This document shows, one piece after another, positions 1,901-18,713 of a stretch of 20,880 bases of DNA. The translations under genes and the position numbers were made by a program. Under the pieces are notes generated by a model. The model was given only the letters and a program-made list of their open reading frames with translations. It did no database searches and was not told the origin of the DNA. The first letter of the stretch is position 1. Every line of letters begins with the position of its first letter. The stretch comes from a virus (lineage: Duplodnaviria; Heunggongvirae; Uroviricota; Caudoviricetes): IMG/VR virus record IMGVR_UViG_3300029080_000072; one strand, given 5' to 3'.

Positions 1901-1904
1901 TGTT

Positions 1905-2130
1905 CATTCCACGGACAAAAACAGAGAAAGGAAACGACAGAGGCCAAAAAGCCCGTTTTCAGCACCTGTCGCTTCCTTTCTTTTCAGAGGGTATTTTAAA
2001 TAAAAACATTAAGTTATGACGAAGAAGAACGGAAACGCCTTAAACCGGAAAATTTTCATAAATAGCGAAAACCCGCGAGGTCGCCGCCCCGTAACCTGTC
2101 GGATCGCCGGAAAGGACCCGCAAAATGATA
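1905..2130 (-). other. cos site (cosB terminase-binding R elements, cosN, cosQ side)
   Basis: Minus strand reads ggggcggcgacctcgcgggttttcgctatttatgaaaattttccggtttaaggcgtttccgttcttcttcgtcataacttaatg...; the 12-nt cohesive-end sequence GGGCGGCGACCT is the complement of 2078-2089; repeated cgtttcc R-type elements lie between it and nu1. Confidence 0.8.
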
Positions 2131-2288
2131 ATAATTATCATCTACATGTCACAACGTGCATCTACGTCATCAAACCACGTCAAATAATCAATTATGACGC
2201 AGGTATCGTATTAATTGATCTGCATCAACTTAACGTAAAAACAACTTCAGACAATACAAATCAGCGACACTGAATACGGGGCAACCTC

Positions 2289-2483
2289 ATGTCAACTAAG
2301 AACAGAACCCGCAGAACAACAACCCGCAACATCCGCTTTCCTAACCAAATGATTGAACAAATTAACATCGCTCTTGAGCAAAAAGGGTCTGGGAATTTCT
2401 CAGCCTGGGTCATTGAAGCCTGCCGTCGGAGACTAACGTCAGAAAAGAGAGCATATACATCAATCCAAAGTGATGATGAATAA
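2289..2483 (+). CDS. Small conserved ORF near the lambda right end (hypothetical)
   Basis: 64-aa ORF MSTKNRTRRTTTRNIRFPNQMIEQINIALEQKGSGNFSAWVIEACRRRL...; the DNA resembles the lambda right-end region as remembered; function unknown. Confidence 0.4.
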   Translation: MSTKNRTRRTTTRNIRFPNQMIEQINIALEQKGSGNFSAWVIEACRRRLTSEKRAYTSIQSDDE

Positions 2484-2848
2484 ACATCCCGGTTTCTTCC
2501 ACCATCGCACCGGAAAAGCGACTATGAGGGTAACCCTGCGTCTGTCAGCACAGTAAAACCCGGTGTGCATCGTTTTTGATTATTCCCGCACACTCACGCA
2601 GAAGGAATTCCCCGTCGGGCTACGGTCATGGTTAATGCGGGAATACGGCGACGATACAGCGCAGCTAAAAGGGTAATGGACAGATAGAGCGGTTTATTTC
2701 ATTCCACAGGATTCTGAGTGCCCCCCTCCTCCAATAGGCTGAGCATCCACCTATATAGTTTTAGTTTTAATTTTCATCAATCCATTTAACTATCGTTTAA
2801 TTGTTGTCACATAGGATTCTGCCGTTTTTAACAATGCAGGATAATAAG

Positions 2849-3142
2849 ATGAAAAAAATGTTGTTTTCTGCCGCTCTGGCAATGCTTATTACAGGATGTG
2901 CTCAACAGACGTTTACTGTTGGAAACAAACCGACAGCAGTAACACCAAAGGAAACCATCACCCATCATTTCTTCGTTTCGGGAATTGGACAGGAGAAAAC
3001 TGTTGATGCAGCCAAAATTTGTGGCGGCGCAGAAAATGTTGTTAAAACAGAAACCCAGCAAACATTCGTAAATGGATTGCTCGGTTTTATTACTTTAGGC
3101 ATTTATACTCCGCTGGAAGCGCGGGTGTATTGCTCACAATAA
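2849..3142 (+). CDS. bor: Bor lipoprotein (serum-resistance lipoprotein)
   Basis: MKKMLFSAALAMLITGCAQQTFTV...GIYTPLEARVYCSQ has a lipobox (LITGC) and matches remembered lambda Bor; AGGA precedes the ATG at 2849; the tracked ORF start at 2801 is an upstream extension. Confidence 0.9.
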   Translation: MKKMLFSAALAMLITGCAQQTFTVGNKPTAVTPKETITHHFFVSGIGQEKTVDAAKICGGAENVVKTETQQTFVNGLLGFITLGIYTPLEARVYCSQ

Positions 3143-3152
3143 TTGCATGAGT

Positions 3153-3170
3153 TGCCCATCGACATGGGCA
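3153..3170. terminator. Hairpin between convergent bor and Rz (possible bidirectional terminator)
   Basis: tgcccat-cgac-atgggca inverted repeat; no strong T-tract on either side. Confidence 0.3.
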
Positions 3171-3173
3171 GCT

Positions 3174-3635
3174 CTATCTGCACTGCTCATTAATATACTT
3201 CTGGGTTCCTTCCAGTTGTTTTTGCATAGTGATCAGCCTCTCTCTGAGGGTGAAATAATCCCGTTCAGCGGTGTCTGCCAGTCGGGGGGAGGCTGCATTA
3301 TCCACGCCGGAGGCGGTGGTGGCTTCACGCACTGACTGACAGACTGCTTTGATGTGCAACCGACGACGACCAGCGGCAACACCATCACGCAGAGCATCAT
3401 TTTCAGCTTTCGCATTAGCTAACTCCTTCGTGTATTTTTCATCCAGTGCAGCAACATCACGCTGGCGCATCTGCATGTCAGTAATTGCCGCGTTCGCCAG
3501 CTTCAGTTCTCTGGCATTTTTGTCGCGCTGGGCTTTGTAGGTAATGGCGTTATCACGGTAATGATTAACAGCCCATGACAGGCAGACGATGATGCAGATA
3601 ACCAGAGCGGAGATAATCGCGGTTACTCTGTTCAT
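3174..3635 (-). CDS. Rz: Rz i-spanin
   Basis: [45 protein letters not shown]...QKYINEQCR is near-identical to lambda Rz; its ATG (3635-3633) overlaps the R stop. Confidence 0.9.
3233..3415 (-). CDS. Rz1: Rz1 o-spanin lipoprotein, embedded in Rz in another frame
   Basis: [60 protein letters not shown]: lipobox and proline-rich segment, matches lambda Rz1. Confidence 0.85.
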
Positions 3636-4129
3636 TGCTGACCCCACAAACAGATTTCACGCTCAATCTCACGACGAGTCATGAGACCTTTCCATTGCTT
3701 ACCGCCAGCATATGTCCAGCGACGTAGCTGATCACATGCGCCTTTGATATCGCCCTGGTTTATTTTGCGAAGAAGCGTCGATGTTCTGAAATTGCCAGCG
3801 CCCACGTTGTAAACGAACGAGTAAAGAGCGCCGCGCGTTGTTTCCGGTATATCAACTTTTATGTACGGGTTAATTTGTCTGGCGACCGTGGCAAGGTCTT
3901 TATTCAGGAGGGCTTTGCATTCTGCTTTGGTATACGTTTTACCGAGCATGATGTCTTTTCCTGTATGCCCGTGACATACAGTCCATACACCAACAATATC
4001 TTTGTATGGTATGTAGCTGACACCTTCCAGACCATCGTTACCACTTGGGCCAGTGATTAACACTGATGCTATAGCAATTGCTCCGCCACCAATAGCAGCA
4101 GCAACGGCTTTTCGTAATGATGGAGGCAT
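3632..4129 (-). CDS. R: SAR endolysin, phage-21/DLP12 RrrD type (T4-lysozyme-like)
   Basis: [59 protein letters not shown]... has an N-terminal Gly/Ala-rich signal-anchor-release segment followed by a lysozyme-like body; matches remembered R21/RrrD. Confidence 0.9.
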
Positions 4130-4344
4130 TATTCACCTCTCGCAGCCTTGCGCTTATCTTCTTTAATCTTGAAATAAAGGTTTGTCAGGTACGTCAGCAG
4201 GCCAAATACCAGGCTACCCAGCACACCTATTGCTGCCCACTGTGAGGGCGTGACTTTATCGAGCAGCTGTAAAAACCAGTAACCGGCACTACCTGCTGAG
4301 GTGCCATAGGCGACACCCGTTGTTAACTTATCCATGGATTTCAT
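4129..4344 (-). CDS. S: Class II holin (pinholin, S21/EssD type) with dual-start motif MKSM
   Basis: [71 protein letters not shown]; ATGs at 4344 and 4335 (Met1/Met4); GAGGTGGGG Shine-Dalgarno upstream; the tracked ORF start at 4389 is an extension. Confidence 0.85.
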
Positions 4345-4389
4345 AACCCCACCTCGCAGACAAAGCGGGTGTAAATTGAGGGAATACAA

Positions 4390-4932
4390 CGTATCGCAAA
4401 AAAGCAGAAACGTAACAGACTCGGAGTCAGTGAATAACTCAGGTATTGAGTTATCAGCTAATATCGAGACTCAAAAAATGGAAAAACCAGCTCGACGGCG
4501 GGTTTAAGCTGTGTGACGAAGTAACCACTCTTAACAGCATAACCAATTTTTTACGTACGTAAACCACTGAATGATATTTATGAGAATGCTACCGAGTGTT
4601 CAAAACACCACCACAAATACATAAGAAAACCTCAACAAATAACCAATAAATAATTTCAGACGTTATTTTTAGTTGATTTAAATTAAACTGCCGAATTATA
4701 GAACCTCCATAAATAACAACCATTAATATAAATTAGCTAATAGGTTTATTTTTGTTCAAATAAGAGCCATAAATAGGTTTCGATAGAAAAAGTTCAGATA
4801 AAAATAGAGATCTACTTCACAAATTAAATGAGAAACTAAAACTTACATCTTGAAATAATCACATTGATTAGATGAATATTTATCGCGCAGTGACATCATT
4901 TTTTAATAATAGTTCAAAAAAAAGGGCTCACG
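4390..4932 (+). promoter_or_regulatory. AT-rich ~540-bp upstream region of the porin gene (promoter/regulatory, exact elements not resolved)
   Basis: Very AT-rich non-coding stretch directly upstream of the porin ATG; AAGGG precedes the start. Confidence 0.4.
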
Positions 4933-6015
4933 ATGAAAAAATTAACAGTGGCAATTTCTGCTGTAGCTGCATCAGTACTGATGGCGATGTCTGCTCAGGC
5001 AGCTGAAATTTATAATAAAGACAGTAACAAGCTGGATCTATATGGGAAAGTTAATGCCAAGCACTACTTCTCCTCTAATGATGCAGATGATGGTGATACT
5101 ACTTATGCCCGTCTTGGCTTCAAAGGTGAAACCCAAATCAACGATCAACTGACTGGTTTCGGTCAGTGGGAATATGAATTCAAAGGCAACCGCGCTGAAT
5201 CTCAAGGCTCCTCCAAAGACAAAACCCGTCTTGCATTTGCAGGCCTGAAATTCGGGGACTACGGCTCAATCGATTACGGCCGTAACTACGGTGTAGCATA
5301 TGACATCGGTGCGTGGACTGACGTTCTGCCAGAATTCGGTGGCGATACCTGGACCCAAACAGATGTGTTCATGACTGGTCGCACCACTGGTGTTGCAACT
5401 TATCGTAACAACGACTTCTTTGGTCTGGTTGATGGTCTGAACTTTGCTGCTCAGTATCAGGGTAAAAATGACCGCACTGACGTAACTGAAGCTAATGGTG
5501 ATGGTTTCGGTTTCTCCACTACTTATGAGTATGAAGGATTCGGTGTAGGTGCAACCTATGCTAAATCTGACCGCACTAATAATCAGGTTATCTACGGTAA
5601 CAACAGCCTGAATGCATCTGGTCAAAATGCTGAAGTATGGGCAGCTGGTCTGAAATATGATGCGAACAACATCTATCTGGCTACCACCTATTCTGAAACC
5701 CAGAACATGACTGTTTTTGGTAATAACCATATTGCCAACAAAGCACAAAACTTCGAAGTAGTTGCACAATATCAGTTCGACTTCGGTCTGCGTCCGTCCG
5801 TTGCTTACCTGCAATCTAAAGGAAAAGACTTGGGTGCGTGGGGTGATCAGGACCTGGTTGAATATATTGATGTAGGTGCAACCTATTACTTCAACAAAAA
5901 TATGTCCACTTTTGTTGATTACAAAATCAACCTGATTGATAAGAGCGATTTCACGAAAGCATCTGGCGTTGCTACCGATGATATCGTTGCTGTAGGTATG
6001 GTTTACCAGTTCTAA
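4933..6015 (+). CDS. nmpC: OmpC/OmpF-family general porin (phage-borne NmpC/Lc-like), apparently intact
   Basis: 360 aa with signal peptide [23 protein letters not shown], typical porin beta-strand pattern and C-terminal ...VGMVYQF; matches remembered NmpC/Lc. Confidence 0.9.
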
Positions 6016-6133
6016 TTTGATTACTAAAAGATATGTTGCGGGAGGCTTTGCCTCCCCAACATATAAGTGGCTCCCTCAAGCCACTTCCTTTAGGAGCACA
6101 ACCTTGCTTCTAACTATATAAACCTTCTGTTAT

Positions 6134-6203: not shown

Positions 6204-6587
6204 TTAATTAGAGTTATTAACAACGATATCCATCTCTAACCGGATATCTAATGCCATTAACATCCCTTCAATTATGCCCTCAGCCTTCTGTAACCTTTTC
6301 CCGATATAACCATCAGAGCAGCAATGCTTACCTGCCAGTGACATGAATGTCATACCGACTACATAATAATCTACTAATAAATCGTGCAAATCGCTGTTGT
6401 TCTTTTTCAGACGGGCCATGCACCCGCAAATAATCATCGCGTCATCGTCACAACATTGCGGGCGAGATTTTACTTTTGAAGTAATTAATCCCTTAAAACC
6501 GGCGGCAATGGACGACCAGGTCACATCTTCATGATTATTAGCCGCCCACGCTCCCCAACGCTCAAGAACCATCTGAATATCACGCAT
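6204..6587 (-). CDS. Q: Late antiterminator Q (phage-82/DLP12 QuuD type)
   Basis: [62 protein letters not shown]... matches remembered QuuD (127 aa); ATG at 6587 with upstream GGAG; the tracked 6602 start is TTG. Confidence 0.85.
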
Positions 6588-6809
6588 CAACTTACTCCAC
6601 AAAAATCAGACCAGAACGCCAATTACAAGCAAAAATCAACAAAACAGTATTAGTTGATTGTTATCTCTGACTTCATACTCCTGCTCCTGTCAGGGTTTTG
6701 GCGTAATTCTTCAGTATTCGGTAATCGGTCAAAACAGAACCGGGGAAACGATATAAGCGCAGATGCCCCCAGCGGTGGCGAAGAAGTTCTGCCATATAAA
6801 ACTCAAACA

Positions 6810-8337: not shown

Positions 8338-8967
8338 CTAAAACAAGGATAAACTTTGCCCTGCTCCAGGCGTTGGCTTTACAAATGTTACATCTTTAAT
8401 TCTTTCGCCTAGGAGAAAAAATTTGTCCAAAGATAGCGATGGTATTGTTGCAAACCCATCAGCCCCCTTTTTCCTAGCAACCCCTCTCACGTCCATGAGA
8501 ATTCGCCCTAATACGTTCATACCATAATAGTTACCTTCTGGGTCTTTACTGGCACCCCAGAATTGGTCCTTCTCTGAGTGTTCCACGATGAAATGGTCGC
8601 CTGTACTGTCTAACAGCGCAAAGAACGTATCCCAGTTCTGGCATAATTTTACGCATACACACCACTTCATAATCGAAACTCGATTCTTATCCCATCCTGC
8701 GCGAGTTTTGGATTCAAACGATCTTGCGGTCTGCTTGGCTTCATAGGGGTTTCCTTGAGTAATGATGGCCTTTTGTATATCCGGATAGTCTGGATATCGG
8801 CATGCTTGGTAAAGGATTTCACTTGATTGAATAGGCAACCCATTGATTAACAATGGATATCCTTTAGCCATGTTGGAAAGCCCCCCCCATTTTTCGGTGG
8901 TTTTCCTGAAGGAAACTGTGTTCTGTAGCGGATATAATCTATAGCTCATACCACTCATTATACCCAT
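8338..8967 (-). CDS. NADAR (YbiA/DUF1768-like) domain protein, predicted N-glycosidic/ADP-ribosyl hydrolase
   Basis: Motif pattern GGLSNM ... IQSSEILYQACRY ... IVEHSEKDQFWGA ... G.N.LGRILMDVR parallels E. coli YbiA (FSNF ... TSEHYFQAQKF ... VEHTENDAYWGDG ... GKNRLGYLLMELR); start ambiguous among ATGs at 8967, 8958, 8949, all overlapping the upstream gene. Confidence 0.7.
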   Translation of the reverse strand: MGIMSGMSYRLYPLQNTVSFRKTTEKWGGLSNMAKGYPLLINGLPIQSSEILYQACRYPDYPDIQKAIITQGNPYEAKQTARSFESKTRAGWDKNRVSIMKWCVCVKLCQNWDTFFALLDSTGDHFIVEHSEKDQFWGASKDPEGNYYGMNVLGRILMDVRGVARKKGADGFATIPSLSLDKFFLLGERIKDVTFVKPTPGAGQSLSLF

Positions 8968-9970
8968 TCCGCTTCATTAGTGGATACCAGCAGTCCAATG
9001 CGGGAGCACCTGTTGGTTCATAATCTCCCCACCAAAAAGCCAGCGGCACATTATTCGGGCAATTTCGATAAGTAAATGTTGTTCCCCCAAAACCCAAACC
9101 GTCAAAAGTAGAAAAACCTAGAGGTTTGAGCACCTCACTAGGGGTTTTCCTGTGCAGCAAGATATTAAAGCCGACTTTAGTAAGGATAGATTCGAAACGA
9201 TCCCTTGAGGCTTCATTTCTAAAACTATCAGAAGAGGCATATCCATCTCTGAATACGCCTTTGTAAAGCTCACACTCCTCGAATTTCTCGGGAGTATCTA
9301 CACTATATTTCCTTGGCCAGAAAACACCTGATTGAGCAGAACGACTTTTTCGGTTTTCAACCTCACGCATACCACCATTCTTCACGTGTACAAAAATGTT
9401 TCTATCCTTAAAAATATATTCTAATCGTCTTTTTATATTATAGTCAGATAACGTATGAGATGAAAAAAAATATACATTGAATTTAATATCTCTTAAATTA
9501 AATTTTAAAACAAAATTACTTATCGATTTGATGGCCTTTTCTCCTGAAAACGACACATCATCAATATATACAAATGTATCAAATTTATTTACTTCATCTT
9601 GAGTTGATGATTCAGTAACGATGTTAAATTTGATCCCTACTGTTTCATAAAGAGATTTAAGCAATTCCTTCTGACTAGAACCTTTTTTTTGAATATCTAA
9701 AAAACCTGCATATCTGAAGAATTTCGCGTTCTTTTCACTTCTTGCAATGGCTTTTATTTTTCGTTGATATTGACTTTCGGATAGGTAACCTGCATTAAGT
9801 AGATAAAGCGTTTCATCTAAGATAAATCGTCTATCCTCCACTGCAAATTGCTTAATCCATTTGCTGACATGTTCAGAGTTCATACCTTCAGCCGGAGGAT
9901 ATTTATAATCGCTCAACTTTTCAGCAATTTTATTGATTACTTTTTCACCAGATAAAATATTCGAGGACAT
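8939..9970 (-). CDS. Unassigned 343-aa protein (AT-rich cargo gene); weak PRTase-like DD motif; function unknown
   Basis: Uninterrupted ORF with AGGA 8 nt upstream of the ATG; FVYIDDVSFSGEKA resembles a type-I phosphoribosyltransferase PRPP motif; Trp/Gly-rich C-terminus; no family I recognise. Confidence 0.7.
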   Translation of the reverse strand: MSSNILSGEKVINKIAEKLSDYKYPPAEGMNSEHVSKWIKQFAVEDRRFILDETLYLLNAGYLSESQYQRKIKAIARSEKNAKFFRYAGFLDIQKKGSSQKELLKSLYETVGIKFNIVTESSTQDEVNKFDTFVYIDDVSFSGEKAIKSISNFVLKFNLRDIKFNVYFFSSHTLSDYNIKRRLEYIFKDRNIFVHVKNGGMREVENRKSRSAQSGVFWPRKYSVDTPEKFEECELYKGVFRDGYASSDSFRNEASRDRFESILTKVGFNILLHRKTPSEVLKPLGFSTFDGLGFGGTTFTYRNCPNNVPLAFWWGDYEPTGAPALDCWYPLMKRNGYNEWYEL

Positions 9971-10181
9971 AAAAATTCCTTTTCACAACACAGAATCTAA
10001 AAAATAAGAATACTTTTATTTATTTCAAGTATAGACCGTATATTCAACTACTTTTTTTTATAGTAGGGAGATACCGATCACAATTTTTAGATATCTAATG
10101 TGATGGTTTAATAACCAGCAGTCTTACGTGTTAATTCACGTAAAAAAACTCATCAAACCTTCCTCTTTTCAGTTAATTCTT
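9971..10181 (-). promoter_or_regulatory. AT-rich upstream region of the cargo cassette with a TACGTG-N6-CACGTA palindrome (10125-10142)
   Basis: ~210 bp, very AT-rich, between the methyltransferase stop and the cassette start; the palindrome is followed by an A7 run. Confidence 0.35.
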
Positions 10182-10766
10182 TTAAGAATAAACATCAGTA
10201 ACTCGGGCCGGGCTTAATGCTACGGTTGGCGAATCACACTTGTTTCCCCATACGTCGAAACCGTGGGAGGATTTACGCGCAAAGAGCTCAATACGTGGAA
10301 GATTACCCAGCAACCGAACCAGCATTTCACGCACGCAGTCTGGTTTACGTGAGTGCTCATGTCGCGGCGAGGTGTAGTGCTGGATGATCGAGGCGTCCTG
10401 CTGTGGTGCCCGCTTACCCTTTACCGCGAAAAGACAATCTTCACGGTTCGCCCGGATCAGGTGTCCCATTCCCATCGCCGATTTGTCAGTTTGCTTCGGG
10501 TAGGTTTTATCCCAAGTGAAACCTTTCATTGTGATCAGGCGAAATCCCCAGGCATCGACGACTTTCATCGCCTCGAACGTTTGAGTTGGCAACCACCACA
10601 TCGCCAGCTGGCAGCTTTCTGCAACCCGCTCCCTTACTGGCAGCCAGCAGATATCCTGCACCGTCATAACCAAGTATTTATGCCCGGTGCCACGCTTACC
10701 AGAATTGCATTTATCCTCGTACGTCCAGGGCGGATCCGCTTAGATCAACGTGTATTTCTTGTTCAT
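10182..10766 (-). pseudogene. Dam-like N6-adenine DNA methyltransferase (DPPW motif) interrupted by an in-frame TAA at codon 9
   Basis: Minus strand from ATG 10766 reads MNKKYTLI-TAA-ADPPWTYEDKCNSGKRGTGHKYLVMTVQDICWLP...; the stop (10742-10740) sits where intact homologs, as I remember them, have Tyr in LIYADPPW. Confidence 0.75.
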
Positions 10767-10768
10767 GG

Positions 10769-11455
10769 TTAAATAAATCCGACTGCTTTACGCGCTTTGT
10801 ATTGCTCAAGCAAAAGCTGAGCGGGAGTCGGCCCGGGCACGTGGCGCGGAGCCGAGATTTGTTTTCTGACCGGAGGGATTGGTTTGCCCTCACTGACGCG
10901 CTTCTCCCACATGTCCAGCAGGTCACCAGCCTCGCATGCCAGCTCGCCATGCGTTAACTGGCGCTCAATGCTACGGTGGCGCAGTTCGACGCAGATGTGG
11001 TACATGACAGGCTGTGACCACGGGAAATGCTCGCTGGAAGTGAATTCGAAGGAACGATTACGCCAATCCCAGTATTCGGTTATGACTTGGTCAACAGTGA
11101 TACCTAACGCCCCGCCACTCTGCTTACACCACGCTACGAACTGGCCGGGCGACGGCAGGAATGGTCGCTCCTGTCGGCGGGCCACGCGCATTCCGGCGTT
11201 AACCTGCTCCATAGTGGTAATTCCATTTTCACGGAAAGCCATAACCCACTGACGGCGGATTTCGTTCAGCTCGTTCTGGTCGCGGTTCGCGAGGCTTGCC
11301 GGAAATGTCGCAAGCAGCTGGCTGAACACACCGTTGATGATCTGCGCCACCTGCTGCACCTGCGGCTTTTCGTCGTATTGTTCCGGCATGTTGTTGGCGA
11401 TTCGACGCATCTGCTCACGGTCAAAGTTAATCATCTGCGCGGCAATATTTTTCAT
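10769..11455 (-). CDS. P: Replication protein P (helicase loader); lambda-like N-terminal half, divergent C-terminal half
   Basis: MKNIAAQMINFDREQMRRIANNMPEQYDEKPQVQQVAQIINGVFSQLLATFPASLANRDQNE... near-identical to lambda P over ~110 aa. Confidence 0.9.
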   Translation of the reverse strand: MKNIAAQMINFDREQMRRIANNMPEQYDEKPQVQQVAQIINGVFSQLLATFPASLANRDQNELNEIRRQWVMAFRENGITTMEQVNAGMRVARRQERPFLPSPGQFVAWCKQSGGALGITVDQVITEYWDWRNRSFEFTSSEHFPWSQPVMYHICVELRHRSIERQLTHGELACEAGDLLDMWEKRVSEGKPIPPVRKQISAPRHVPGPTPAQLLLEQYKARKAVGFI

Positions 11456-12381
11456 AGCTCCACCCCGTAAATCCAGTCAGTGTTTGTCAGGTCGAGTTTT
11501 GGTTTGCTGGCAGTCACACCAGCCTGTTGCTTGTTACGGTTGATTTCGAGTTGGGTCCACTTGTCGCGGAGTTTGGCCGGACTTAGCACGTTACCGGACC
11601 AGAAGTTGTCCTGGCATGCCCAGCGGAACAGCACGCACATGTCGCGGTGGTTACGTCCGTCACGTTCACGCATCAGGCGGATATCGTTAGCCCACCCTGC
11701 AAAATTCGGTTTTCTGGCTGATGGCGCGATGGTCTTCACCATGTCAAACATCCACTCTGCGGCGGTCAGGTCTTCTGCTGTCCCCCACCTGCTGCCGCTC
11801 TGAATTGCAGCATCTGGTTTCTCCACAGGAAGATCGTTTTCTGGTTGGTCAGAGGATTCGCCAGAATTCTCGGACGAAAAAGGTTTTATATTGTCTTTTG
11901 TTAGTTTGTCTTTTGTGTTTACCTGATTCGGGTAAACGCCTTTACCTGATTTAGGTAAACTTTTCTTACCTGATTCAGGTAAATTTACCTCTTTCAGGTA
12001 AACTTTATTTTTCTTACCCGATTCGGGTAATGTTGACCATTCACTGACCACATTATTGATGCCGATATTCCGCCCGCTCTGAATAAAAATCCCACGCTTT
12101 ACCAGAACACTTTTTGCAGCAGAACACTTGTGCGGCAATATCCCGGTTAATTCGGAAAGTTGCTCGTTGCTAACCCAATCCAGTTTTTTATTAAAGCCAT
12201 ATGTTTTGCGCATGACAGCCAGAAAGACCAGAAGCTGGTGCTGTGTTAATCCGGCCAGCATCACAGCTTCCAGCAACTCATTTGCAATGCGCGTATAACC
12301 ATCATCGAGATCTGCCACGCGCCGCTCCTTTTGTGCCACATCCGGCACAGGAAAATTGAATATCTCAGCAGTGTTTGCCAT
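11452..12381 (-). CDS. O: Replication initiator protein O
   Basis: C-terminal half matches lambda O (...YSSENSGESSDQPENDL...AAIQSGS.WGTAEDLTAAEWMFDMVKTIAPSARKPNFAGWANDIRLMRERDGRNHRDMCVLFRWACQDNFWSGNVLSPAKLRDKWTQLEINRNKQQAGVTASKPKLDLTNTDWIYGV); start taken as MANTAEIFNF (ATG 12381, GGAGG upstream), lambda O being MTNTAKILNF. Confidence 0.9.
   Translation of the reverse strand: MANTAEIFNFPVPDVAQKERRVADLDDGYTRIANELLEAVMLAGLTQHQLLVFLAVMRKTYGFNKKLDWVSNEQLSELTGILPHKCSAAKSVLVKRGIFIQSGRNIGINNVVSEWSTLPESGKKNKVYLKEVNLPESGKKSLPKSGKGVYPNQVNTKDKLTKDNIKPFSSENSGESSDQPENDLPVEKPDAAIQSGSRWGTAEDLTAAEWMFDMVKTIAPSARKPNFAGWANDIRLMRERDGRNHRDMCVLFRWACQDNFWSGNVLSPAKLRDKWTQLEINRNKQQAGVTASKPKLDLTNTDWIYGVEL
11919..12031. 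repeat. Replication origin iterons (five ~19-bp repeats TTACCTGATTCGGGTAAAC-like) inside O, flanked by an AT-rich segment (11881-11918)
   Basis: Repeats at 11919-11937, 11942-11960, 11966-11984, 11985-12003, 12014-12030; each is internally palindromic (TTACC...GGTAA); the arrangement follows lambda ori. Confidence 0.75.
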
Positions 12382-12467
12382 AATTCCTCCCGCAATGAGT
12401 GTGTTACGATTTGCACCTGAAAGTCGGTTCTGTTCCCGCAGACCGACTTTCGCCATTTTTGAACCTG

Positions 12468-13007
12468 TCATATTGCCCCCAGCATGGTGGTGACCATCGC
12501 CATCAATGGACCAGCCAGATCCGGGTCCACTCGAAACATCGACACAATGCCTTCACTCATCTCCTTCAGTTTCTGGTGGCGTGGTGCGTTGAGAATGACC
12601 GCCTGCTTTGCCTCACAGAGTTCCTTTTCCATTTCAGCCAGCCGAGCCATGAAGCTATCCTGCTCAACCAGGTGGCCGCGATATTCCAGCGGTAGTACCG
12701 CCAGAATTGCCGGGGTCAGTTCACGCACGTTATTTCGGTATTTTTCAGAATCGAATTTGTTATCGAGGAAGCGGAACAGCTTCTGGCGTGCACGGCTGAC
12801 ATCATCAGGGAAATCGATAGTGCCGCCGCCCTGCTCCCGATACTCATTCACAATGAGTGTGGCAACGACATCCTGATTATCTTCAGCCGACCAGGCGCGG
12901 ACGGCATCACGGATTTTTTCGTGGCCTGGCACCTGTTTTGTTTGAGAACGATTTATCACCGCAGTCGGGCTAAATCCGCTAGTCTGTTGGTATGTAAGTG
13001 GTTGCAT
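12468..13007 (-). CDS. cII-position protein, 179 aa, possibly YdaT-family
   Basis: Good Shine-Dalgarno (AAGGAG) and position between cro and O; not lambda CII-like; the LTPAILAVLPLEYR segment resembles what I recall of YdaT-type proteins (weak memory). Confidence 0.5.
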   Translation of the reverse strand: MQPLTYQQTSGFSPTAVINRSQTKQVPGHEKIRDAVRAWSAEDNQDVVATLIVNEYREQGGGTIDFPDDVSRARQKLFRFLDNKFDSEKYRNNVRELTPAILAVLPLEYRGHLVEQDSFMARLAEMEKELCEAKQAVILNAPRHQKLKEMSEGIVSMFRVDPDLAGPLMAMVTTMLGAI

Positions 13008-13076: not shown

Positions 13077-13307
13077 TTAAGCTGCGTTCTTTTCGGTGTG
13101 TGGAAACAACTTCGGAAGATCCGGGCGAATCTGGTATGCCTTCACTACTCCACCAGTAGCCGTAACAATGCTGCCGACATGTTCAGGGGATACCTTTGCT
13201 TTGTTGTGAAGCCACTTATAGACGGCCTGCTGTGAAACTTCGCAGGCAGCGCCCAGTTTCTTTTGTGAACCAACGATATTGATCGCTGTTTTGATAGCTG
13301 GATTCAT
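13077..13307 (-). CDS. cro: Cro-like HTH repressor
   Basis: 76 aa, divergent from cI across an operator region; GGAGG 5 nt upstream; GAACEVSQQAVYKW is a helix-turn-helix-like segment. Confidence 0.8.
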   Translation of the reverse strand: MNPAIKTAINIVGSQKKLGAACEVSQQAVYKWLHNKAKVSPEHVGSIVTATGGVVKAYQIRPDLPKLFPHTEKNAA

Positions 13308-13411
13308 AACAACCTCCGTGGTTAATTTGAATCAAGATTAAAACTATGGTTGTTTTTAGTCAACAACCATTTTCGTTTGATGGAATAAAACCTTGGTTGT
13401 ACATTTGGACT
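13308..13411. promoter_or_regulatory. OR region: divergent promoters and operator palindrome ATGGTTGTT-N7-AACAACCAT (13346-13370)
   Basis: Perfect 9-bp inverted arms; further GGTTGT half-site at ~13395; the same AACAAC half-site recurs at OL. Confidence 0.6.
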
Positions 13412-14101
13412 ATGAAAACAACACTCTCAGAAAGACTTAAAGAAGCCAGATTAGCGCGAGGCCTTACACAAAAGGCGCTTGGGGATTTGGTCGGGGTTAG
13501 CCAAGCTGCTATTCAGAAAATCGAAACAGGGAAAGCTAACCAAACAACTAAAATCGTGGAGATCGCGAACGCTTTGGGTGTGCGCGCAGAATGGTTATCT
13601 TCTGGCGTTGGAAATATGTCAGACAGTACAGTGCAACCAATACAATCAACTGTCAGCCATTCCAAATACTTTAAGATTGACGTTCTTGATATAGAAGTGA
13701 GTGCCGGGCCGGGAGTCATCAACCGTGAATTTGTAGAAGTTCTACGCTCGGTTGAGTACTCGTTTGACGATGCTCGTCACATGTTCGATGGCAGGAAGGC
13801 GGAAAATATCCGCATCATTAACGTGCGTGGTGACAGCATGTCAGGAACGATCGAACCAGGTGATCTGCTGTTCGTTGATATCACGGTTAAATCTTTCGAC
13901 GGTGATGGTATCTATGCGTTTCTGTACGACGACACAGCCCATGTAAAGCGCCTGCAAATGATGAAAGATAAGCTACTGGTTATCTCTGATAACAAGAGCT
14001 ACTCACCGTGGGACCCGATCGAGAAAGACGAGATGAACCGGGTGTTCATTTTCGGGAAGGTTATTGGCAGTATGCCGCAGACGTATAGGAAACACGGATA
14101 A
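13412..14101 (+). CDS. cI: CI repressor (XRE-type HTH + LexA/S24-like autocleavage domain)
   Basis: MKTTLSERLKEARLARGLTQKALGDLVGVSQAAIQKIETGK... then a C-terminal S24-like region; the tracked ORF start at 13346 lies inside the operator, so it could alternatively be a leaderless start. Confidence 0.9.
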   Translation: MKTTLSERLKEARLARGLTQKALGDLVGVSQAAIQKIETGKANQTTKIVEIANALGVRAEWLSSGVGNMSDSTVQPIQSTVSHSKYFKIDVLDIEVSAGPGVINREFVEVLRSVEYSFDDARHMFDGRKAENIRIINVRGDSMSGTIEPGDLLFVDITVKSFDGDGIYAFLYDDTAHVKRLQMMKDKLLVISDNKSYSPWDPIEKDEMNRVFIFGKVIGSMPQTYRKHG

Positions 14102-14180
14102 TCAGCTGCGTGCTGATGAGGCTTTTGGGTAATGCGCTGAAAGAATTCTTTATAAAAATAACATTACGGGAAAGGCAAAA

Positions 14181-14450
14181 ATGAGTGATAAAAAACTTAT
14201 AAAAAAATCAAATAACTGTGTAGATGCATATGCTGATGCATTTGGATATTCATCTTTTGGGGAAGATGACGATCGCTTAGGCTCCATATCTTTCTTTCAG
14301 CATGTTACAGAATGGGGCGCTGATGGTAGTAATGACACTGAAAACGTAAAGTACAACATTGCAACAATTCGCATGACGGAAGATTTAATGCTTAAACTCG
14401 CTGACTTTATTCGCGATCAGCATGATAGAGCTAAAACCAATAAGTCATAA
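14181..14450 (+). CDS. Hypothetical acidic 89-aa protein, first gene of cI-linked cassette
   Basis: ORF with GGGAAAGG Shine-Dalgarno; AT-rich; no family recognised. Confidence 0.55.
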   Translation: MSDKKLIKKSNNCVDAYADAFGYSSFGEDDDRLGSISFFQHVTEWGADGSNDTENVKYNIATIRMTEDLMLKLADFIRDQHDRAKTNKS

Positions 14451-14458
14451 TATTAACA

Positions 14459-14899
14459 ATGAAACACGGTTATTACGAAGCTCCAAACCTAACTGAAAAG
14501 CTTGAACAAGCGGCAAGATCATCATCTTTGCACACTGCAGCATTTTCTCAATCAGCTGGTATGTCTGGCGGTAATGTACCTATGCTACAATCAAGTGGTA
14601 GCGGTGGCTCTGGGAGTAATAATGTGCTTGAATCGAAAGTTGCAAAGCTTGAGTCTGATGTGTCCTATATCCGACGTGACGTTGATGAGCTTAAGACAGA
14701 TGTCAAATCTATCGACAGAAACATGATCGCTGTTCTGGAGCGACTCGATTCAATAAAAGATTCACTAGCCAAAAAACCCTCCATCGATGCTGTCGATAGA
14801 AAGATTTCAGACGCAAAGCTTGCGGTATTGCTTGGTGTTCCAGCAATCATCGCTGCAGGAACAGGTCTTTATAAGCTATCAATGTACTTTTTTCTTTAG
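14459..14899 (+). CDS. Coiled-coil protein with C-terminal transmembrane anchor (possibly XhlA-like), second gene of cI-linked cassette
   Basis: Heptad-like segment LESKVAKLESDVSYIRRDVDELKTDVKSIDRNMIAVLERLDSIKDSL and hydrophobic tail LAVLLGVPAIIAAGTGLYKLSMYFFL; starts 8 nt after the previous stop. Confidence 0.55.
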   Translation: MKHGYYEAPNLTEKLEQAARSSSLHTAAFSQSAGMSGGNVPMLQSSGSGGSGSNNVLESKVAKLESDVSYIRRDVDELKTDVKSIDRNMIAVLERLDSIKDSLAKKPSIDAVDRKISDAKLAVLLGVPAIIAAGTGLYKLSMYFFL

Positions 14900-14976
14900 T
14901 GCTTAAGAAACTGCTCGCCACCTTGCATTACGCAAAGCGATTTTTCATTCCCTATTACCCTTTCTTATCCATCTAA

Positions 14977-15004
14977 ACCCGGCCCCAGTGCCGGGTTTTC
15001 TTTT
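14977..15004 (+). terminator. Rho-independent terminator ending the cI operon
   Basis: acccggc-cccagt-gccgggt hairpin followed by tttcttttg. Confidence 0.65.
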
Positions 15005-15099
15005 GCCTCCCCTCATCACACAAACCGTTCAAAAAACCACCACGACCTCGCTTCAGTTATCGCTATGCGATGCAAGTCACAAAATAAATCCATCTTAAA

Positions 15100-15175
15100 T
15101 ACAACCAGTTATATCTAAAACAACCAATAAAACAACTTTTGTTGTTGCCGATAAAACAACTATAGTTTTAAATGA
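15100..15175 (+). promoter_or_regulatory. OL/PL region: AACAAC-repeat operators incl. palindrome AACAACTTTTGTTGTT (15131-15146); candidate PL (-35 TTGCCG 15145-15150, -10 TTAAAT 15168-15173)
   Basis: Several AACAAC half-sites matching the OR palindrome; promoter hexamers with 17-nt spacer. Confidence 0.5.
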
Positions 15176-15246
15176 ATTCATCGCAACAACACAACGATAC
15201 GGCAATCACCTGATTCACCGTTGCGATGACCGCTTAGATCCGCAGC

Positions 15247-15657
15247 TTGAATTTCAGCAGGCTCCGGGGAGTGCGAGGGGTGAAGCGGACGCGTGAACGT
15301 CGGTGTGACCAGCTGAAATCAACTCAACACTTCATACCTCAGTCGCTTCAACGAGGCGACTTAGTTATGACAACCGGCGGCCATCCACCGCCTGAATACG
15401 CGCAGAAGTCTCTATATGTTCAGCAGCCCAGCTTACGGGCAGGAGTTTTTATGGTTCATCAACATTACGGAACGCAGACCGTTAATCGAGGTGCGGTCAT
15501 GCCAGGAATGCTGGTCAAACACAAAGATGGTACCTGGACTGCATCAGCTAATTTACGCGGACGGCTATATCTGCATCGCGGCATCGAGCGCACTTATACC
15601 CGTGATTTGCTCGTGGAAGTTTTTCTCGACGGACGCGGTAACGGCCTGAATCACTAA
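15247..15657 (+). CDS. First early-left ORF (N position); hypothetical, start uncertain (TTG 15247, GTG 15271/15280 or ATG 15367)
   Basis: The reading frame contains an Arg-rich segment [14 protein letters not shown] resembling the N arginine-rich motif (lambda TRRRERR); the rest is not recognisably N-like. Confidence 0.4.
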
Positions 15658-15732
15658 TCCCCTTTCCTGTTTTCCTAATCAGCCTGGCATTTCGCGGGCG
15701 ATATTTTCACAGCCATTTTCAGGAGTTCAGCC

Positions 15733-16029
15733 ATGAACGCTTATTACATTCAGGATCGTCTTGAGGCTCAGAGCTGGGCACGTCACTACCAGCAGATCGC
15801 CCGTGAAGAGAAAGAGGCAGAACTGGCAGACGACATGGAAAAAGGCCTGCCCCAGCACCTGTTTGAATCGCTATGCATCGATCATTTGCAACGCCACGGG
15901 GCCAGCAAAAAAGCCATTACCCGTGCGTTTGATGACGATGTTGAGTTTCAGGAGCGCATGGCAGAACACATCCGGTACATGGTTGAAATCATTGCTCACC
16001 ACCAGTTTGATATTGATTCAGAGGTATAA
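15733..16029 (+). CDS. gam: Gam, host RecBCD inhibitor (short GamS-length form)
   Basis: [60 protein letters not shown]... near-identical to lambda Gam residues 41-138; an in-frame stop 19 codons upstream rules out the long form; AGGAG precedes the ATG. Confidence 0.9.
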
Positions 16030-16034
16030 AACGG

Positions 16035-16820
16035 ATGAGTACAGCACTCGCAACGCTGGCAGGGAAGCTGGCTGAACGTGTCGGCATGGATTCTGTCGAC
16101 CCACAGGAACTGATCACCACTCTTCGCCAGACGGCATTTAAAGGTGATGCCAGCGATGCGCAGTTCATCGCATTGTTGATCGTCGCCAACCAGTACGGCC
16201 TTAATCCGTGGACGAAAGAAATTTACGCCTTCCCTGATAAGCAGAACGGCATTGTTCCGGTGGTGGGCGTTGATGGCTGGTCCCGCATCATCAATGAAAA
16301 CCAGCAGTTTGATGGTATGGACTTTGAGCAGGACAATGAATCCTGTACATGCCGGATTTACCGCAAGGACCGCAATCATCCGATCTGCGTCACCGAGTGG
16401 ATGGATGAATGCCGCCGCGAACCATTCAAAACCCGCGAAGGCAGAGAAATCACGGGGCCGTGGCAGTCGCATCCCAAACGGATGTTACGGCATAAAGCCA
16501 TGATTCAGTGTGCCCGTCTGGCCTTCGGATTTGCTGGTATCTATGACAAGGATGAAGCCGAGCGCATTGTCGAAAATACCGCATACACTGCAGAACGTCA
16601 GCCGGAACGCGACATCACTCCGGTTAACGATGAAACCATGCAGGAGATTAACACTCTGCTGATTGCCCTGGATAAAACATGGGATGACGACTTATTGCCG
16701 CTCTGTTCCCAGATATTTCGCCGCGACATTCGCGCATCGTCAGAACTGACACAGGCCGAAGCAGTGAAAGCTCTTGGATTCCTGAAACAGAAAGCCTCTG
16801 AGCAGAAGGTGGCTGCATGA
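16035..16820 (+). CDS. bet: Bet (Red-beta) single-strand annealing protein
   Basis: 261 aa, [69 protein letters not shown]..., essentially identical to lambda Bet. Confidence 0.95.
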
Positions 16821-17497: not shown

Positions 17498-17652
17498 CGC
17501 ATCCTCACGATAATATCCGGGTAGGCGCGATCACTTTCGTCTACTCCATTACAAAGCGAGGCTGGGTATTTCCCGGCCTTTCTGTTATCAGAAATCCACT
17601 GAAAGCACAGCGGCTGGCTGAGAAGATAAATAATAAACAGGAGGATATATGA
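17494..17652 (+). CDS. Unannotated 52-aa micro-ORF translationally coupled between exo and the DGQHR gene
   Basis: ATG overlaps the exo stop (ATGA at 17494-17497) and its TGA overlaps the DGQHR ATG (ATGA at 17649-17652); product [52 protein letters not shown]; below the ORF-track size cutoff. Confidence 0.4.
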
Positions 17653-18713
17653 GTCAGGTTGGTAATCATTCATTCGAATTTCCGGCATCGCAAGGTGTAC
17701 AGGGTGGTACTGTTACACTCTTCCTTACCATACCAGGAAGATCGCTGGCTCGTTTCCTCGCTTCAGATAATTACGGCCATACACTGGAACGCTCTCAGCG
17801 AGAAATTAATCCAAATCGAGTACGAAAATTTTTAAATTATCTCACTAACGCAGACTCAAGAAATGAGTCTTTTATCATTCCCCCTCTCGTAGGTAACTGT
17901 GATTCGAATATAGAATTTGTACCGTTTGGCAACACAAATGTTGGTATAGCCAGAATTCCCCTCGACGCCGAAATAAAACTTTTTGATGGCCAACATCGTG
18001 CAGCTGGCATTGAGATATTTTGCCGAAGTTCCCCATCAACGCTCATGGTTCCCATGATGCTTACAATGAATCTGCCGCTAAAAACCCGGCAGCAGTTCTT
18101 TTCGGACATAAATAACAACGTTTCTAAGCCATCAGCGACCATCAATATGGCGTATAACGGCCGGGATGATATTGCTCAGGGAATGATATCCTTCCTGACC
18201 CAACATACTGTATTTGCCGATATAACCGATTTTGAACACAACGTAGTGCCATTAAAAAGTAATATGTGGGTGAGTTTCAAGGCACTCACTGATGCAACGT
18301 CAAAGTTTGCTAGGAACGGCAATCAACAACTTGAAATGGGATATATAGAATCTGTCTGGGAGGCATGGATTACACTAACTCAGATTGACTCAATCCGACA
18401 TGGTGTACACCACGCTACGTACAAGCGCGATTATATTCAGTTCCATGGAGTAATGATTAACGCTTTCGGTTTTGCGGTTCAACAGATGATGGTTAATCAT
18501 TCCATCGCAGAAATAACTTCTATGATCGAAAAACTCTGTGCAACTACCAGCTCTGCAGAAAGAGAGGATTTTTTTCTGATGGATAACTGGGCGGGGATCT
18601 GCACGAAAGCCAGCCAGGAAAAACTATCGGTTATTGCCAATGTGGCAGCGCAGAAAGCAGCAGCAAACAGACTGATACAAGCTTTTACCAAAGGAAGTCT
18701 GGAAACAACTTAA
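17649..18713 (+). CDS. DGQHR-domain (DndB-like, ParB/Srx-fold) protein
   Basis: Contains the literal motif FDGQHRAAGIE preceded by a region resembling what I recall of DndB-like proteins; AGGAGG 5 nt upstream of the ATG. Confidence 0.7.
   Translation: MSQVGNHSFEFPASQGVQGGTVTLFLTIPGRSLARFLASDNYGHTLERSQREINPNRVRKFLNYLTNADSRNESFIIPPLVGNCDSNIEFVPFGNTNVGIARIPLDAEIKLFDGQHRAAGIEIFCRSSPSTLMVPMMLTMNLPLKTRQQFFSDINNNVSKPSATINMAYNGRDDIAQGMISFLTQHTVFADITDFEHNVVPLKSNMWVSFKALTDATSKFARNGNQQLEMGYIESVWEAWITLTQIDSIRHGVHHATYKRDYIQFHGVMINAFGFAVQQMMVNHSIAEITSMIEKLCATTSSAEREDFFLMDNWAGICTKASQEKLSVIANVAAQKAAANRLIQAFTKGSLETT

Follow-up and report, generated by a model that had tools for sequence, protein, structure and literature searches.

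A two-gene cassette downstream of cI in a lambdoid Escherichia coli prophage, a candidate lysogen-expressed exclusion or abortive-infection module

The question raised by this locus is what the two genes between the cI repressor gene and the oL operators contribute to a lambdoid Escherichia coli prophage. The window, i.e., the whole stretch of 20,880 nucleotides (nt) analyzed here, is IMG/VR virus record IMGVR_UViG_3300029080_000072 (Caudoviricetes), and its studied region is 100% identical to chromosomal prophages integrated beside icd, such as that of strain TD225-C4. The first of the two open reading frames (ORFs), ORF1, encodes a small acidic protein of 89 amino acids (aa), and ORF2 encodes a 146-aa coiled-coil protein with a predicted C-terminal membrane anchor. 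A preliminary description, made from the letters alone, placed this cassette in the rexAB position and proposed that it was an exclusion or abortive-infection module expressed in lysogens. Its location and architecture point to a lysogen-expressed pair of a sensor and a membrane effector serving exclusion or abortive infection, a reading that we favor while giving it slightly less than an even chance.

Position of the cassette and its cargo slot

13412 to 14101, plus strand: cI repressor, first gene of the maintenance operon (Pfam HTH_3, E = 6.5e-13; Peptidase_S24, E = 1.5e-18)
14102 to 14974, plus strand: exchangeable cargo slot, from the cI stop codon to the terminator, bounded by homology breaks against related phages
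14181 to 14450, plus strand: ORF1, 89-aa acidic soluble protein, phrog_4231 (ORF list)
14459 to 14899, plus strand: ORF2, 146-aa tail-anchored coiled-coil membrane protein, phrog_3556 (ORF list)
14975 to 15004, plus strand: intrinsic terminator of the cI operon, common to relatives whatever their cargo
15124 to 15143 and 15148 to 15167, no strand: oL operators, two 20-nt direct repeats 24 nt apart, complementary to oR

In phages Turner, IdasGreatGrand, and PhiR30_1, the flanks are 93 to 98% identical to those of the window, and cI is about 97% identical (94 to 97% in IdasGreatGrand and PhiR30_1). Their homology to the window ends at 14091 to 14102, at the cI stop codon, and returns at 14975 to 14977, the first bases of the terminator, which indicates that the terminator belongs to the cI operon and that the gene content before it is interchangeable cargo. 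The slot of Turner is 128 bp long and carries no gene, that of IdasGreatGrand carries the PADLOC entries PDC-M11A and PDC-M11B (E = 2e-133 and 7e-52), and that of PhiR30_1 carries PDC-M63A and PDC-M63B. Published work portrays the cI-N interval as a hotspot of mosaicism, home to rexAB and bstA, with transcription in lysogens that ranks among the highest of all prophage regions (PMC8585504). A second cargo site was found in Salmonella phage UPF_BP1 (genus Lederbergvirus) and in a metagenomic P22-like contig (L018), in both of which homologues of ORF1 and ORF2 lie directly after mnt and converge on gene 16. In P22, this site holds orf59a and sieA, both of which are replaced by the cassette in UPF_BP1 and L018; SieA is the P22 exclusion protein (PMC10883804).

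The two ORFs at 14181 to 14899 are present in the ORF list, and RefSeq annotates exactly these two as coding sequences in an identical E. coli locus, each as "hypothetical protein," with a cI start that corresponds to window position 13412. ORF1 begins 79 nt past the cI stop (14101), and ORF2 follows ORF1 after 8 nt. The terminator is as strong as the preliminary description had it: positions 14975 to 14998 form a 9-bp stem with 6 G-C pairs, followed by TTTTCTTTT, and the structure at 14975 to 15004 folds at -15.1 kcal/mol (z = -3.5), with none of 200 shuffled sequences folding equally well. The 79-nt gap between cI and ORF1 contains no terminator-like structure (z = -0.7) and no significant predicted promoter, and the terminator is shared with relatives whose slot is empty; therefore, ORF1 and ORF2 are probably cotranscribed with cI from pRM in lysogens. 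A weak promoter-like site before ORF2 (14422 to 14451), which we take to resemble lambda pLIT, was discounted and given no weight because the region has 2 such sites compared with 5.3 in shuffled controls. An Rfam scan of the whole window returned no match.

The order cI-ORF1-ORF2-terminator-oL, with both ORFs on the cI strand, is the same as the annotated lambda order cI-rexA-rexB-oL. The assignment to the rexAB position is borne out by the oR-like repeats at 15124 to 15167, which lie just past the terminator and mirror the lambda order; these oL calls rest on the D1 repeat family together with the inverted repeats I1 and I8. The DNA is AT-rich relative to cI, as described, but only modestly so, with G+C contents of 36.3% in ORF1, 42.6% in ORF2, and 40.0% in the slot as a whole versus 46.5% in cI.

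Architecture of ORF2 and ORF1

14486 to 14527, plus strand: ORF2 residues 10 to 23, short helix in the variable N-terminal region, proposed docking site of ORF1 (AlphaFold model; covariation with partner family)
14591 to 14623, plus strand: ORF2 residues 45 to 55, flexible Ser/Gly-rich linker SSGSGGSGSNN (disordered in the model)
14612 to 14626, plus strand: candidate internal translation start, GGGAG at 14612 to 14616, 7-nt spacer, GTG at 14624 to 14626 (V56)
14624 to 14770, plus strand: ORF2 residues 56 to 104, conserved coiled coil (VLESKVAKLESDVSYIRRDVDELK...; helix 55 to 104 in the model, heptad register)
14819 to 14896, plus strand: ORF2 residues 121 to 146, hydrophobic C-terminal membrane anchor, tail type A (hydrophobicity; helix 109 to 145)

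ORF2 is composed of an N-terminal helix, a Ser/Gly linker, a coiled coil of about 50 residues, and a C-terminal membrane helix, in agreement with the coiled coil and single C-terminal transmembrane (TM) helix first described. The heptad register is strong, with 14 hydrophobic a/d positions in the best frame versus 1 to 9 in the other frames. The single hydrophobic stretch begins at residue 119 to 121 and extends to the C terminus (Kyte-Doolittle maximum of 1.8, for the segment starting at residue 119); a KKPS hinge and a flank rich in Lys and Arg come before it. The AlphaFold model has helices at residues 10 to 23, 55 to 104, and 109 to 145, with residues 24 to 54 disordered and a break at KKPS; its predicted local distance difference test (pLDDT) score of 62 is expected because this is a monomer model of an oligomeric stalk. 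By the positive-inside rule, the sensor-side parts of ORF2, together with ORF1, should be cytoplasmic, because there is no signal peptide, the Lys/Arg-rich flank lies N-terminal of the sole TM helix, and ORF1 is soluble. The coiled coil is the best-conserved part of the ORF2 family, and every member has a Gly-rich linker before the conserved module; this linker is the apparent recombination joint between adaptor and membrane module.

ORF2 matches phrog_3556 (E = 4e-54), a PHROG of unknown function, and in Pfam, NCBIfam, and PADLOC it gave only subthreshold coiled-coil noise (PADLOC E ≥ 0.006). Homologues of the whole protein form 108 clusters, and those of the conserved module form 656 (E ≤ 1e-5), of which the best 120 are 90 to 214 aa long and, where an organism is named, all come from Enterobacterales. 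A search of the ORF2 profile against the PDB retrieved only generic, mostly trimeric coiled coils, including the P22 gp26 needle (E = 1e-3), Lpp, fibritin, and GCN4 variants, which were judged to reflect heptad similarity and not homology.

The acidic character attributed to ORF1 is evident from its isoelectric point of 4.98 and net charge of -4.3, and it has no hydrophobic segment. The AlphaFold model (pLDDT 77.8) consists of three antiparallel beta-strands followed by a C-terminal helix. A COMM-domain fold and a PC4/PurA-like fold were considered for ORF1, and no firm assignment resulted. ORF1 matches phrog_4231 (E = 2e-49), also a PHROG of unknown function, and no match was found in Pfam, NCBIfam, or PADLOC scans or in PDB sequences searched with its profile. 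Profile searches thus gave neither protein a usable family name, as the preliminary description had stated. The ORF1 family is tiny, with 15 homologous clusters, and an exhaustive HMMER search of the profile over 1.84 billion representative proteins (clusters at 50% identity) found only 10 matches, so that no wider family offers a clue. ORF1 is proposed to be a partner of ORF2, acting as its sensor or inhibitor.

The linker may also contain a second start. A start at V56 would yield a 91-aa product with the coiled coil and the TM helix and without the adaptor. Among 35 distinct linker sequences, the first codon of the conserved coiled coil is ATG in 33 and GTG in the other 2. GGA accounts for 36% of the linker Gly codons versus 11% in the E. 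coli K-12 codon table, which served as the control, and this usage creates GGAGG motifs 6 to 10 nt 5' of the coiled-coil start codon. The mean predicted pairing with the anti-Shine-Dalgarno sequence at the internal start is -11.8 kcal/mol versus -9.4 kcal/mol for synonymous recodings. Gene callers often choose this position; examples are P0011 (91 aa, 92 contigs) and P0080 (90 aa, 72 contigs). These observations are only suggestive of an internal start, because the linker sequences are related and Gly codons are inherently similar to Shine-Dalgarno sequences.

Partner families and modularity

The survey of ORF2 relatives covered 123 loci from assemblies, IMG/VR, and species genomes. About 90 of them are complete loci with a score of 60 bits or more, and in each of these the relative follows a tightly coupled first gene, at a distance of -65 to +8 nt. 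The first gene belongs to partner family 0 (about 136 to 160 aa) in 71 loci, to partner family 1 (about 119 to 132 aa, with a CxxC...CxxC motif) in 14 loci, and to partner family 2, the ORF1 family (about 90 aa), in 12 loci, and a singleton partner of 93 aa occurs in one locus between cI and an N gene. Comparisons among the three families with hhalign gave probabilities below 1%, i.e., no detectable relationship. A PADLOC scan of three alternative partner proteins, all from partner family 0, returned no match, and no fusion of a partner with ORF2 (Rosetta stone) was found among the ORFs of 130 loci or the best 120 of the 656 module homologues.

Proteins of the ORF2 type share one build, in which a variable N terminus of about 25 to 55 aa is followed by a Gly-rich linker, a near-invariant coiled-coil start (M-LEARVAKLESDVSYIRRD...), and a membrane tail. 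There are at least three types of tail, namely, A (the window), B (ending in ...SKILDALNGLVLK), and C (UPF_BP1). Partner identity is correlated with the identity of the ORF2 N terminus (Spearman rho = 0.40; Mantel P = 5e-4) and far more weakly with that of the C-terminal module (rho = 0.13). Tails A and B are each found with all three partner families, and in 15 pairs of cassettes the partners and N termini are 48 to 80% identical while the tails, of different type, are only 24 to 42% identical. Since the partner tracks the N terminus and not the tail, ORF2 appears to consist of a docking peptide and a swappable membrane module; the partner probably binds the N-terminal peptide, with the unit of partner and peptide and the unit of stalk and tail being shuffled at the linker.

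The genomic contexts of the family are mostly those of lysogenic genes. The upstream same-strand neighbors of 46 distinct cassettes were scanned against Pfam, and the matches included HTH_3 (26), Peptidase_S24 (17), Phage_CI_repr (10), DUF6246 (7), and Arc/Mnt (4), from which it follows that at least 30 of the 46 neighbors are immunity-type regulators (HTH or Arc/Mnt repressors). The cassette of L011 is an opposite-strand moron between tail genes, and those of L020 to L022 lie at a prophage end beside host genes.

Further neighboring genes were recorded. A DUF6246 protein (E = 1e-81) is found beside cassettes with a zinc-ribbon partner (L076, L077, L083, L096, L104, and L020 to L022), its gene lying upstream on the same strand or, in Pantoea, downstream and convergent. 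In Citrobacter prophages L003 to L006, a family 0 cassette precedes a third gene on the same strand, the 126-aa product of which weakly resembles BamE (E = 9e-4), and a small gene on the other strand comes next (locus positions 5474 to 5854 and 5886 to 6110); these may be extra cargo of the same slot. In L019, an N_peptide gene directly follows the cassette.

Selection, alleles, and distribution

The exact ORF1 and ORF2 proteins are each encoded on at least 1,000 contigs, always named hypothetical. A second allele of the cassette, 81% identical at the DNA level, occurs in 151 other complete E. coli genomes behind an identical cI protein (WP_000858975.1). The ratio of nonsynonymous to synonymous substitution rates (dN/dS), calculated between the window allele and this allele, is 0.08 for ORF1 and 0.24 for the whole of ORF2, with values of 0.50 in its N-terminal 55 residues, 0.10 in the coiled coil, and 0.17 in the membrane tail. 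ORF1 and ORF2 are real genes under purifying selection. The synonymous divergence (dS) between the alleles is 0.6 to 1.7 in the cassette versus 0.02 to 0.15 in cI, cro, gam, and bet, with the cI and Cro proteins being identical, which indicates that the cassette alleles are old and were brought by recombination into immunity regions that are otherwise almost the same.

The distribution is patchy. The cassette was found in 201 of 5,426 complete E. coli genomes (3.7%; window allele and 81% variant together), and the plasmid collection gave no match. The 81% allele occurs commonly in E. coli isolates of bovine and human origin with large genomes, and many carriers of either allele have genome sizes typical of Shiga toxin-producing strains, a statement about size alone and not pathotype. 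In the set of isolated phages, the cassette is present in full length in UPF_BP1 alone, and weak partial coiled-coil matches occur in seven other Salmonella or Enterobacter phage records.

Two loci bear traces of decay or rearrangement. In NZ_CP035860.1 (L001), with a prophage that matches the window at 100% identity across the cassette, bet and an MT-A70 methyltransferase gene are annotated by RefSeq as pseudogenes with internal stops (locus positions 4081 to 4665 and 9934 to 10719), so the cassette is retained in a prophage that may be decaying; bet in the window itself (16035 to 16820) is an intact ORF. In E. coli NZ_CP121294.1 (L131; locus positions 1605 to 4360), a tetR(C)-tet(C) resistance insertion has taken the place of cI, ORF1, and the 5' portion of ORF2, and the 3' part of ORF2 alone remains, directly beside the insertion.

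Comparison with known systems

The closest analogue by layout is lambda RexAB. Both systems have two genes after cI and before oL/pL in the same orientation, and in both a soluble first protein is followed by a membrane protein of about 145 aa. In addition, lambda can tune the ratio of rexB to rexA, and the possible internal start of the cassette could similarly provide ORF2 without its adaptor. The similarity does not extend to the proteins themselves. BLASTP gave no alignment of ORF2 with RexB at E ≤ 100 and no similarity of ORF1 to RexA (E = 5.1), RexA has 279 aa whereas ORF1 has 89 aa, RexB is a polytopic protein with four TM helices whereas ORF2 is a coiled coil anchored by a single C-terminal one, and Rex shows nothing comparable to the partner-swapping modularity of the cassette. 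RexB reportedly acts as an ion channel that dissipates the membrane potential when activated by the intracellular sensor RexA, in a mechanism that has remained poorly understood for more than 60 years (PMC8585504).

XhlA-type proteins resemble ORF2 more closely in architecture. XhlA of PBSX and gp24.1 of SPP1, co-holins of Bacillus phages, carry a TM helix at the C terminus. They do no harm by themselves, and cell killing and lysis require a two-TM holin as well, XhlB or gp26 (PMC6316719, PMC5589764). Like them, ORF2 is a short protein with a coiled coil, predicted to be cytoplasmic, and one C-terminal TM helix, and the dual-start motif of gp24.1 (PMC6316719) has a parallel in the conserved start-capable codon of the ORF2 family. 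Some ORF2 relatives are named "hemolysin XhlA" in NCBI and UniRef, and P0103, a relative with tail type B that has the linker and coiled-coil start in common with ORF2, matches Pfam XhlA (PF10779) over model positions 9 to 66 of 67 (E = 1.9e-5; 25.2 bits). In contrast to XhlA, which is encoded in a lysis cassette with holin and endolysin, the present cassette lies in an immunity operon with no adjacent XhlB-type holin or endolysin, and ORF2 has an additional N-terminal adaptor, a Gly linker, and an obligatory soluble partner. A pedigree among membrane-lesion proteins is therefore plausible for the effector module, judged by its sequence, although its scores lie below the formal limit for XhlA membership.

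Other occupants of the same slot offer precedents of position. In Salmonella prophage BTP1, bstA immediately follows cI, is apparently served by the repressor promoter, and has its own Rho-independent terminator; its product mediates abortive infection (PMC8585504). The cassette shares with bstA the position directly 3' of cI and differs in that BstA is a single protein that localizes to phage DNA replication sites, not a membrane pair; the PADLOC scan revealed no BstA homology in the cassette, the presence of a BstA model in that library being unchecked. PDC-M11AB and PDC-M63AB are likewise two-gene cassettes of unknown mechanism in the cI-to-terminator slot, but their proteins are unrelated (ASCH domain in M11B, DUF6932 in M63A), and they are already catalogued as candidates, whereas the cassette has no entry in PADLOC 2.0. 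The idea that a resident membrane protein could act together with the holin of an incoming phage has a precedent in lactococcal AbiZ, the product of a single plasmid-borne gene of a Gram-positive host, which causes premature lysis through the holin of the invader. A literature search by accessions and PHROG identifiers gave no match, and neither protein is listed in the DefensePredictor supplementary tables. By its proposed function the cassette would be of a known kind, a prophage sensor with a membrane effector, as in RexAB, while its sequence, architecture, and modularity appear distinct when judged against PADLOC-DB 2.0.0 (2023).

Proposed function and alternatives

A working model can be drawn from these features. 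The cassette would be a moron in a lambdoid immunity operon, transcribed with cI in lysogens. The C-terminal helix would place ORF2 in the inner membrane, with the coiled coil and N-terminal adaptor on the cytoplasmic side, and ORF1 would dock on the adaptor peptide, either holding ORF2 inert or giving specificity to the trigger. A cue from a superinfecting phage may then alter the ORF1-ORF2 interaction, whereupon the coiled-coil stalks would assemble, and the tail-anchored ORF2 would permeabilize or depolarize the membrane so that the infection aborts. ORF2 might act alone or by premature cooperation with the holin of the invader, as XhlA-type co-holins do with XhlB, and the shorter internal-start product may serve to adjust the system, in the way that holin/antiholin pairs or the rexB:rexA ratio do. 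A bolder version holds that the cassette is the first example of an unrecognized, modular prophage immune family across the Enterobacterales, in which an XhlA-like co-holin effector is coupled through a docking peptide to interchangeable, unrelated sensors, is supplemented by a dual-start short isoform, and turns the logic of phage lysis on incoming phages by permeabilizing the membrane prematurely; we consider this version possible but rather unlikely.

Several observations weigh against the favored reading. Scans of ORF1 and ORF2 revealed neither a domain linked to defense nor a match to a system in PADLOC-DB 2.0.0 (2023). The slot mates PDC-M11 and PDC-M63 are themselves only candidate systems, and PDC-M63AB was not protective when assayed in its native host. 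The internal-start signal is weakest in the window itself (GTG, -6.8 kcal/mol). ORF2 scores only 11.5 bits against Pfam XhlA (E = 0.34), well below the gathering cutoff of 34.7 bits, which P0103 also fails to reach; the XhlA resemblance noted in the preliminary description thus holds indirectly, through the type B relatives, and not for ORF2 itself. Distant relatives in Morganella and Xenorhabdus are flanked by the tape measure gene on one side and distal tail genes on the other and share their strand, and in about 7 of the 46 cassettes the preceding same-strand gene encodes a protein of DUF6246, the function of which is unknown. Such same-strand placement in a late operon would imply late lytic and not lysogenic expression.

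Among the alternatives, superinfection exclusion in the manner of SieA is improbable but survives best. ORF2 would block DNA entry, leaving the cell alive, and ORF1 would contribute to assembly or specificity. In the P22-like phages UPF_BP1 and L018, the cassette sits exactly where P22 has orf59a and sieA, a likeness of position that concerns these relatives and not the window, and, like SieA, ORF2 would be an inner-membrane protein expressed from a prophage. The entry-blocking genes cor, T5 llp, and HK97 gp15 are typically located at moron sites in the tail region, where relatives of the cassette also occur. Sequence similarity to either of the two P22 proteins is lacking, as BLASTP of ORF2 against SieA gave a best E value of 1.7 over 18 residues and ORF1 gave no alignment with Orf59a, and the single C-terminal TM helix sets the ORF2 architecture apart from SieA. 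Moreover, the predicted topology would leave little of ORF2 to meet periplasmic ejection proteins and ORF1 wholly cytoplasmic, and variable cytoplasmic partners fit sensing better than plugging.

A toxin-antitoxin-like addiction module, with ORF2 as a membrane toxin and ORF1 as a labile antitoxin, is a shade less probable again; it would stabilize the prophage or punish loss of repressor-operon expression, with defense as a by-product. The gene order resembles that of type II systems, with a small acidic protein first and a gap of 8 nt here and overlaps in relatives, ORF2 relatives never occur without a partner in complete loci, and in L083 and L096 a frameshifted ORF2 accompanies an intact partner. 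The covariation of partner and N terminus, with the docking it implies, would also suit direct neutralization. However, no similarity to known toxin-antitoxin families was found in Pfam, NCBIfam, or PADLOC, and three unrelated "antitoxins" with their own docking peptides on one stalk look more like interchangeable specificity modules. By what is known of lambda-type phages, a labile antitoxin in an operon that is off at induction would also poison the phage's own lytic cycle.

A smaller chance still is given to lysogenic conversion unrelated to phage conflict, such as an effect on envelope physiology, stress tolerance, or host interaction. The same prophage has other morons of the conversion type, including a porin gene (4933 to 6015), the prevalence of the 81% allele in large-genome bovine and human isolates could be read in this way, and bstA in the same slot was first tied to virulence phenotypes (PMC8585504). 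Against this, the family is confined to phage contexts with none on plasmids, its partner-swapping modularity is typical of conflict systems, and the proteins have no secretion signal or exposed domain.

Least probable of all is an accessory lysis-timing factor, in which an XhlA-like co-holin and its regulator would work with the prophage's own two-TM S21-type holin. The late-operon placement of some distant relatives is the main contextual evidence for it, and it draws further on the XhlA-like architecture with the subthreshold Pfam match of close relatives, the dependence of XhlA and gp24.1 on a two-TM holin, the dual start of gp24.1 beside the conserved start-capable codon and Shine-Dalgarno-like linker here, and the holin of the P21 S family encoded in this prophage (PF04971, E = 3.5e-35; 4129 to 4389). 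It is at odds with the place of the cassette, which here and in most relatives lies in the repressor operon, upstream of pL and here on the strand opposite the lysis genes about 10 kb away, and is therefore expected to be shut off, not on, in lytic growth. In addition, phages that share both cI and the lysis region manage without the cassette.

Other features of the prophage

11452 to 12471, minus strand: replication gene O
12468 to 13007, minus strand: YdaT-type cII analogue
13077 to 13307, minus strand: cro
13338 to 13370, no strand: oR operator region between cro and cI, with half-sites that recur at oL
downstream of oL, plus strand: kil, gam, bet, and exo

The inverted repeat formed by 13338 to 13356 at oR and 15153 to 15171 at oL is 95% complementary, and a palindrome lies within oR at 13346 to 13370. 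Between oL and kil (15451 to 15657), no N-like antiterminator ORF is apparent in the interval 15004 to 15733; a 136-aa ORF with a TTG start (15247 to 15657) overlaps kil and has no family match.

Other parts of the prophage also contain likely cargo. At 8338 to 9970 (minus strand), a gene for a NADAR-domain protein (PF08719, E = 6e-23) overlaps one for a PRTase-CE phosphoribosyltransferase-like protein (PF24390, E = 6e-39) in very AT-rich DNA (27 to 33% G+C, 9200 to 10200) between the replication and methyltransferase genes and Q. This is another two-gene moron, possibly a pair for conflict or antidefense. A DndB/DGQHR-domain protein (PF14072, E = 3e-46) is encoded at 17649 to 18713 (plus strand), between exo and the xis/int end, with no other dnd or dpd genes nearby. 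The porin gene at 4933 to 6015 (plus strand), of the Gram-negative type and complete (Porin_1, E = 3e-153), lies between Q (6204 to 6602) and the holin gene but on the other strand, with AT-rich DNA (about 30% G+C, 4400 to 5000) adjoining it upstream; its place is presumably the classic nmpC/lc-type position of lysogenic conversion. The otherwise identical prophage of TD225-C4 carries an acyltransferase gene in this neighborhood instead. The lysis cassette at 3174 to 4389 (minus strand) is of the phage 21 type and consists of the S21-family holin (PF04971), a phage lysozyme, and Rz. The S protein of phage 21 is a two-TM pinholin with a dual start.

Implications

If the cassette protects lysogens, it would add a new sequence family to the few membrane-acting prophage systems of exclusion or abortive infection. 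The natural chimeras, in which three partner families, one stalk, and at least three tails are combined, indicate that sensor specificity and effector action should be separable by simple swaps. The proposed pedigree, if true, would link Gram-positive co-holins such as XhlA and gp24.1 to Gram-negative prophage immunity, and the defensive reading would add to the catalogued cargo of the cI-pL and mnt-gene 16 hotspots. Even if not defensive, the cassette would still be a conserved membrane pair, probably expressed in lysogens. Because the family is common, with the cassette in 3.7% of complete E. coli genomes and 656 clusters for the module, it could affect host range in phage therapy and competition among prophages.

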